Of a stretch of DNA of 64,000 nucleotides, positions 23,512-24,875 are shown piece by piece (the stretch's first letter is position 1; each line of letters opens with the position of its first letter). The position numbers and the translations under genes were made by a program. Origin of the DNA: Saccostrea cucullata (lineage: Eukaryota); assembly GCF_032062105.1 (NCBI RefSeq), contig NW_026931726.1, positions 310,001 through 374,000 on the forward strand, in the 5' to 3' direction. The notes below the pieces were generated by a model, which saw only the letters and a program-made list of their open reading frames with translations, was not told the DNA's origin and did no database searches.

Positions 23512-24875
23512 ATGAACGGAAATTTGATGTTATGTGTCTGCTTTCTTTCTGTTGGAGTTTTCGTGGAAAAATATGAATGTAAGTCTATTTTATTCATTCA
23601 AAAATGCTATTCGTTGATTAACTATCTAATTAAGAAATACATAAAACAAGATGTTTGTAGGTTTTTACCTTCTTTAGCAACATAAATTTAGGAACATAAA
23701 TGTTCCATTAATTTTCTCATTTATACCCAAAAAATGGATTAACTTTAGGCTAGATTCACTAACTTTACAGTGATCTCAAGGAGACCAGTAGTTGAACAAT
23801 TATAAGCAATTTAGAATATTAGATTAATGCATTTAACTAAAGAAATTATTAACAAAAAATCAAGACCATTTTTTGCATGACTTCATATCTAATATGAACA
23901 ATGGAAAACCTGCAAAAAAAAAACAAAACAATAAAAACAACGCACAATCTGGCTCATGCAATTAGTTAACCGGTGTGGAATAAAAATTTAAGAAAAGGCC
24001 AACATGCATATTGGAAAAACGAATCACTTAACGTAAAAAAAAAGTGTTCTTTCATTTTTTTCAAATACAGTAAACCTGTTTGAAATAGAGGTAAAGAGTA
24101 ATGTTTTCACGACCTTTACAGCAGCACTACAATTAAAGTATACAGGTATAGACTGATGAAAAAGTGGATTGATGAAAAATATAAACATGTACAAGTACAT
24201 ACATTTTTTCAATGACCTTCGTAGCAAAGGACTTTGGTGGTTTTGAAATTCTCAGAACAATACCTAAACTATAAATACTGATTAAAGATCACAAGGGCTA
24301 AGTTTATTGTGTTTTGCGGCACAAGTAAGTCAGGTATAGACATAAAGATAGTCGGTATTAATAATCACAACTAACGTACAATATAATTATGTATCTTGGT
24401 GACACAGATTCATATTGACCGACGGCCTTGTAAATAAAAACAAATACCAGTATACACATTGTACTTTCAAAGTTCTTTTTGGTGTTTTGTAGGTCTTAAT
24501 GTTCCCAAATTCATTGCTTCACCTTCAAGACTTGGGACAACAAATGATAAAGTGCATTCCTTGAAAACAGCTCTTCTTTTTCATTACATTAACTACTTTG
24601 GAGCCTGCAAACCCGAAAAGATGCACACAATGGAGGTCAAAATATGCTTTGCGTGCATTGATGCTGCGTGCGCACTTATTGGCGAGAGACCAAAAGACAG
24701 GATAAGTGCAAGCAAGAACAAGTTGACGAAGCTCTGTTACCTGGCCAGCAGGGGGAAGGACGTTACAAGATGGTTCACAATCGCAAGTCAAATAGCGGAG
24801 GTCCTATGTGCAGCTTGTTCCGAACTGACGACTGACGAGGAGAAAATAGTTTGTGAAAAGAGAATGTGTCAATGA
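23512..24875 (+). CDS. Two-exon secreted cysteine-rich protein (149 aa), saposin-like Cys spacing, function unknown
   Basis: Exon 1 23512-23578 (MNGNLMLCVCFLSVGVFVEKYE, hydrophobic core) ends at GTAAGT in phase 1. Exon 2 24493-24875 follows TTTTGTAG in phase 1. The join gives 450 nt with no stop before TGA, and AT-rich poly(A)-like signals follow at ~24932-24946. Confidence 0.7.

Follow-up and report, generated by a model that had tools for sequence, protein, structure and literature searches.

The stretch of DNA analysed here (the window) comprises 64,000 nucleotides of contig NW_026931726.1 of the oyster Saccostrea cucullata and carries, on its forward strand, a two-exon gene for a small cysteine-rich protein. 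The coding part of exon 1 (23512..23578, ATG at 23512) specifies residues 1-22, the predicted signal peptide, and one further base. It is separated by a phase-1 GT-AG intron of 914 nucleotides (23579..24492) from exon 2 (24493-24875), in which the stop codon ends at 24875. The spliced coding sequence (CDS) of 450 nucleotides yields 149 amino acids and matches the RefSeq entry XP_062571323.1 (LOC134233377, "uncharacterized protein") at 100%. The first-pass annotation had regarded the gene as hidden; since the spliced product is identical to XP_062571323.1, it is already annotated. The 5' untranslated region (UTR) can be followed over 23213..23511, to the limit of an RNA-type contig (record 6 of sequencing run X1, spanning 23213-23579), and includes four short upstream open reading frames (ORFs) with ATGs at 23240, 23333, 23381 and 23412. 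The 3' UTR covers at least 24876..25062 (X1 record 6, X2 record 16), with an ATTAAA at 24932.

Six of 23 listed sequencing runs (X1, X2, X4, X12, X13 and X15) were compared with the window. Contigs of four of them (X1, X2, X12 and X13, from four studies) lack the intron and contain the joint 23578/24493 at the predicted site, where RNA reads across the junction had been expected. In the comparison this joint appears as 23579>24495 with a single C in between, equivalent to the predicted junction combined with one synonymous change. In X4, a loose contig end coincides with where exon 1 ends; X15, the sole run recorded as RNA, covers just 24576-24728, a part of exon 2. The RNA nature of the other five runs is a guess, and they show about 3% divergence from the window within the CDS. 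An extra 5' piece in run X2, matching the reverse strand of exon 2 with two mismatches, was taken as an assembly artefact. With intact exon and intron signals and the joint present in RNA-type contigs from four studies, the two-exon gene is real and spliced in phase, as originally described.

All four full-length orthologues have their most hydrophobic 11-mer at the N-terminus (Kyte–Doolittle (KD) values 1.97-2.75), and none of the four has a transmembrane-grade segment after it; by hydropathy, the signal-peptide-like start proposed earlier holds. A variable linker or propeptide follows (residues 23-44, 24493..24557), with 17% mean identity over four genera in residues 24-44 and, in the AlphaFold2 (AF2) model, a predicted local distance difference test (pLDDT) score under 50 for residues 24-41. 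The N-terminal helical part (residues 45-112, 24558..24761) contains the conserved C61, C74, C82 and C104, the variable C77 and a variable loop at 88-99. The C-terminal module (residues 113-148, 24762..24869), a predicted helical hairpin, starts with the invariant W116 followed by C128-x2-C131-x11-C143-x4-C148. Towards the N-terminus, the protein also has cysteines at 8, 10, 23 and 61. Helices are predicted by AF2 at 46-58, 68-84, 99-109, 113-131 and 137-148. This all-helix prediction, with no Pfam model over cut-off for the long-protein family or for the short genes described below, agrees with the earlier description of a cysteine-rich helical protein of no recognised family. PDB sequence searches with the long protein and the module returned a single chance-level row each or nothing. 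In the ESM Atlas, P0001 had no usable feature match and weak structure rows only, and the O. edulis protein led to one unnamed cluster at 0.76. A homodimer prediction made without an alignment scored 0.00 twice, which is evidence neither way, and no longer fused form was present among 7996 candidates of 330-2000 amino acids, a weak test.

Searches for homologues gave four matches among 1.84 billion representative proteins and eight with a profile. The conserved homologues that had been anticipated do exist: named orthologues occur in five oysters (S. cucullata, O. edulis, C. virginica, C. gigas and C. angulata), and within the sensitivity of these searches no named match lies outside oysters. 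The core of 105-106 residues is 56-68% identical among four named orthologues. The S. cucullata genome (G000) holds at least one full-length copy; three long queries matched the window locus alone. The orthologues share a frame of eight cysteines, C61-x12-C74-x7-C82-x21/22-C104-x23-C128-x2-C131-x11-C143-x4-C148. Columns were counted in 45 family sequences, many of which are alleles or fragments: all 45 have Trp at W116, and C61 is Cys in all 16 sequences where its column was located. Residues 45-61 form the most conserved block (76% identity) and lie outside the domain delimited in the first-pass annotation. Between the window and run X1, residues 45-149 differ by five synonymous changes and one conservative non-synonymous change (pN/pS, the ratio of non-synonymous to synonymous differences, about 0.05; binomial p 0.002), and the whole CDS by seven synonymous and five non-synonymous changes (pN/pS 0.19, p 0.005), all counted without transition correction. 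No insertion or deletion relative to the reads falls in the CDS; the first is at 24882, 7 bases past the stop. The conserved core is under purifying selection. As a separate observation, the clusters of P0004 and P0028 include many family gene calls on contigs of a recurring size of about 6-9 kb.

Lineage-restricted secreted proteins are common in mucus, shell, cement and gamete-surface secretions. As all named matches are oysters, the protein could be an oyster-specific mucus, shell-matrix, cement or gamete-surface protein. This is rather unlikely, given that it has neither repeats nor a low-complexity tract, and that neither its ids nor its motifs occur in the supplementary files of two studies, one of oyster shell and one of haemolymph. 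That last test is weak, since the files may follow a different id scheme.

The first-pass annotation proposed a divergent saposin fold in which Trp replaces the fourth cysteine. Its spacing is correct for the window sequence (C74-x2-C77-x26-C104-x11-W116-x26-C143-x4-C148), as are the extra cysteines (82, 128 and 131) and the cysteine count in residues 72-149. Saposin-like proteins have a conserved array of six cysteines, according to PMC5890168; three disulfides, two of them linking the first and last helices, are also described, in a fold that packs four or five helices. In the oyster family, the register itself is not supported: the column of C77, the supposed second cysteine, has Asn in 31 sequences, Cys in five and Ser in four and is uncovered in five, so that five of 40 covering sequences and two of five named species have Cys there, the other three species having Ser or Asn, and the conserved frame includes the overlooked C61 helix. 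W116, proposed to stand in for a lost cysteine, is never Cys in the homologues. A 5-of-6 match to saposin spacing, under tolerances chosen by the authors, arises by chance in 1.3-4.1% of 2000 shuffles; three of five orthologues tested score just 4 of 6, which about 33% of shuffles also reach. None of nine members matches the SapB families, whereas the same Pfam models detect true saposins in the S. cucullata genome, and an oyster saposin hidden Markov model (HMM) gives under 1 bit for seven of seven family proteins. Profile-profile comparison with oyster saposins (hhalign) yields probabilities of 0.13-0.35% with a reversed control as good, from shallow profiles and with no positive control. 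The hydrophobic moment is 0.18-0.50 in the first segment and 0.26-0.36 after W116 in the family, against 0.33-0.45 and 0.36-0.49, respectively, in oyster saposins; with 0.09-0.17, the family's additional first helix lacks amphipathic character.

The protein is probably not a saposin. A divergent saposin-like fold with rewired disulfides, formed by residues 70-149 plus an added N-terminal helix, is compatible with the predicted helix layout and has precedents. It would nevertheless require that the second cysteine vary although its necessary partner, C143, is invariant. Together with the invariant Trp at the fourth position, the profile and SapB results, and the occurrence of the last four cysteines as a stand-alone module in short genes, this makes such a fold quite improbable. 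Two loci of the same genome, G000:C15359:463000-469200 and C10546:46000-72500, are rich in saposin B domains; on C15359, several of these lie whole inside single exons, and two are nearly identical.

When the module (last 36-38 residues) was used as a query against G000, ungapped matches with the four cysteines in register were obtained (E 0.8-3) at C17608:498.9k and C4849:192.0k, with a near copy of the latter on C9465. Both are second exons of short gene models, of 95 and 103 amino acids, in which the first exon is hydrophobic and the GT-AG intron is in phase 1. When 162,848 bases were scanned with loosened spacing, three further exons carrying the motif came to light on C4849, no more than 7 kb upstream, besides one chance-like match in the RING finger of the TRIM gene in the window. 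Two of the three give intact models of 93 and 89 amino acids; the splice site of the third is ambiguous. Used as a query, one of these C4849 short genes had nine matches, among them what look like duplicates or alleles on C22398, C21245 and C9559. G000:C4849:185000-193100 is a tandem cluster of four short two-exon module genes, with apparent copies on C22398, C9465, C21245 and C9559. Among the short relatives, the solitary 95-residue two-exon model at G000:C17608:498347-498988 (L025:991-1632) stands nearest to the window gene. On the reverse strand of C21132 (about 199930-200420, L058), a basic frame of 161 residues ends in the module (E 1.5), with no convincing signal exon in about 8.5 kb upstream. 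Beside the window gene, the tally for G000 comes to about five different short genes plus a single long candidate (C21132). The intact short models number four (89-103 amino acids, signal-like exon, phase-1 GT-AG intron), and their cysteines outside the module are confined to the signal region. Two observations concern the surroundings: the C4849 cluster contains a fifth signal-like exon, but the candidate exon following it has no CxxC, and C17608:490885-491619 (L027), 7 kb upstream of the short gene, holds a 245-residue frame with a transmembrane segment and a stretch that is presumably fibronectin-III-like.

Long and short proteins share the pattern [IL]-[AT]-[DE]-x-[LF]-C-x2-C-x10/11-C-x4-C at or nearly at the C-terminus. 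When sequences were shuffled with the cysteines fixed, 2 and 66 of 100000 matched or beat the observed score, and pairwise hhalign of the long module with short ones, as preselected targets, gave 87% and 82%. An HMM built from five short peptides placed five family proteins at the top of 1536 frames (E 6e-4 to 0.7), with the window frame at 0.02. Common ancestry of the module in the long protein and the short genes is, judged from these comparisons, probable. The mature part of the four intact short models has just four cysteines, which could pair only among themselves, and this argues against a saposin-type staple between N- and C-terminus. The saposin look would then stem from the same CxxC / C-x4-C helix staple, yet closed over 11 residues.

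Charge distinguishes the two kinds of module: 0 to -4 in the long protein and +3 to +5 in the short peptides. Cationic, divergent, tandem genes are typical of antimicrobial peptide families. The short relatives have all three properties, and they may be diversified cationic effectors, with the long protein, or a hairpin cleaved from its C-terminus, acting as an antimicrobial too. The long protein offers some support: its core charge ranges from +1 to +10 in orthologues and is net positive in five of five full cores, and Arg precedes W116 in two genera. An immune effector is all the same unlikely for a protein that is single-copy, under purifying selection and neutral to acidic in its module, and whose orthologues compared have no common dibasic cleavage site upstream of the module. 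The basic middle segment (net charge +6 for residues 83-115 of the window protein), from which a membrane-active role had been deduced, is not conserved: its charge varies from +1 in C. virginica to +9, and its basic loop (88-99), Gly-rich in C. virginica, belongs to the least conserved stretches. Because of their charge, the short members are the better antimicrobial candidates.

The long protein may instead be the conserved member of an unnamed oyster family of secreted proteins with a C-terminal helical hairpin, binding a partner protein rather than puncturing membranes; sequence comparison makes this quite possible, if still somewhat short of likely. After cleavage of the signal, C128/C131 would staple to C143/C148, in the simplest case as nested disulfides 128-148 and 131-143; these four are expected to pair together because they are homologous to the four cysteines of the short models. 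C61, C74, C82 and C104 would pair among themselves within an N-terminal helical bundle. A conserved surface (W116, E133, T136, E138, E139, K140 and K145) could be read by a receptor or other target, in the manner of a ligand resembling a hormone or cytokine. A membrane-lytic peptide fits less well than a ligand that has a fixed partner, because the gene is single-copy and under purifying selection, charged and aromatic residues of the protein are invariant, and the hairpin is neutral to acidic. On a bolder and more doubtful view, the whole would be an undescribed oyster family of secreted CxxC-x10/11-C-x4-C hairpins, consisting of short cationic tandem peptides with antimicrobial or signalling roles and a long acidic-hairpin fusion serving as a dedicated ligand.

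Several points weigh against a partner-binding hairpin protein. The positive core charge of most orthologues would suit a membrane or polyanion role, the case for a ligand draws solely on the conservation pattern, and secretion is predicted from hydropathy alone. The pLDDT of 73.6 was reached by just one of five AF2 models. The E-values for module homology are modest, and the HMM test is partly dependent, because the short peptides were chosen by their cysteine spacing. About 600 frames with the exact spacing are expected by chance genome-wide, extrapolated from one in 1.92 Mb, and convergence upon a common helical staple is possible.

Upstream of the gene lies a single-ORF TRIM gene (20085..22103, forward strand; RING PF00097 and B-box PF00643 over cut-off, propeller-like C-terminus). 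It is covered by contigs that differ mainly at third positions and skip 86 bases right after the stop, without GT-AG ends. No contig among those listed joins it to the cysteine-rich gene, a weak test, and on present evidence it is a neighbour only. We take exons at about 14700-16200 (reverse strand) to belong to a uridine-cytidine kinase-like gene, those at about 32000-36000 (forward) to a glycoside-hydrolase-like gene and those at about 46600-56400 (reverse) to a gene for a calcium-binding mitochondrial carrier. An ADF/cofilin-domain gene (Pfam PF00241) lies at 61609-61880 on the forward strand.

Oysters have a small known repertoire of antimicrobials and hormones, one that is relevant to disease in aquaculture. 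A compact family made up of a conserved long protein and several short cationic members (about 35-40 mature residues) is easily synthesised and tested, and it exemplifies how one shared helical staple can yield a saposin-like impression; pending a demonstrated activity, it counts as another unnamed family of lineage-specific secreted proteins. A family with this long-plus-short layout appears, provisionally, to be undescribed so far. Literature searches by accession and topic, with subscription journals, figures and bioRxiv supplements outside their scope, found no account of protein, module or family. The protein was not found in the supplements of PMC8398477, PMC10543319 and PMC11480171, nor were C. 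gigas orthologue ids in that of PMC8398477, whose sequences sit in figures outside the search. No family member has a Pfam match to eclosion hormone (PF04736); the corresponding genome search listed no family locus, but returned nothing at all over cut-off and had no positive control.

Among known systems, the module resembles cysteine-stabilised alpha/alpha hairpin peptides (kappa-hefutoxin, framework XIV conotoxins and plant hairpinins), which carry four cysteines on two short helices. It has the same four cysteines, two short helices and, as predicted here, nested disulfides. It differs in its spacing, C-x2-C-x10/11-C-x4-C, and in occurring also as a fusion with a larger helical part, and it has no match in Pfam or the PDB. 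Saposin B, NK-lysin and amoebapore (PF05184, PF03489) are likewise small, helical, of secreted type and equipped with CxxC and C-x4/5-C, and their last helix is similar, with K-x-x-C...C at its end. In the oyster protein, by contrast, the six-cysteine array is not conserved, an extra conserved N-terminal helix carries C61, and the conserved CxxC lies 11 residues before C-x4-C rather than about 65. Among bivalves, mussel CRP-I is reportedly a further lineage-restricted, cysteine-rich secreted peptide. Such families are well known in this group, and those named in PMC8398477, Cragi-CCCGS, clionin and FYFY, share with the oyster protein a signal peptide, a variable middle and a cysteine-rich end, their function being mostly unproven. 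PMC11108583 describes HGAP as abalone-specific, with 96 amino acids and nine cysteines. Saposin-like conotoxins are venom products with a different cysteine spacing, the ten cysteines of Mu8.1 lying at 10, 18, 22, 30, 34, 51, 57, 61, 71 and 89 (bioRxiv 10.1101/2022.07.04.498665), and no sequence match of this type was found for the oyster protein in the PDB. Mu8.1 and also con-ikot-ikot are likewise molluscan, secreted and helical, with disulfides mostly inside two regions, and these conotoxins have proteins rather than lipids as targets (10.1101/2022.07.04.498665), as proposed for the oyster protein.
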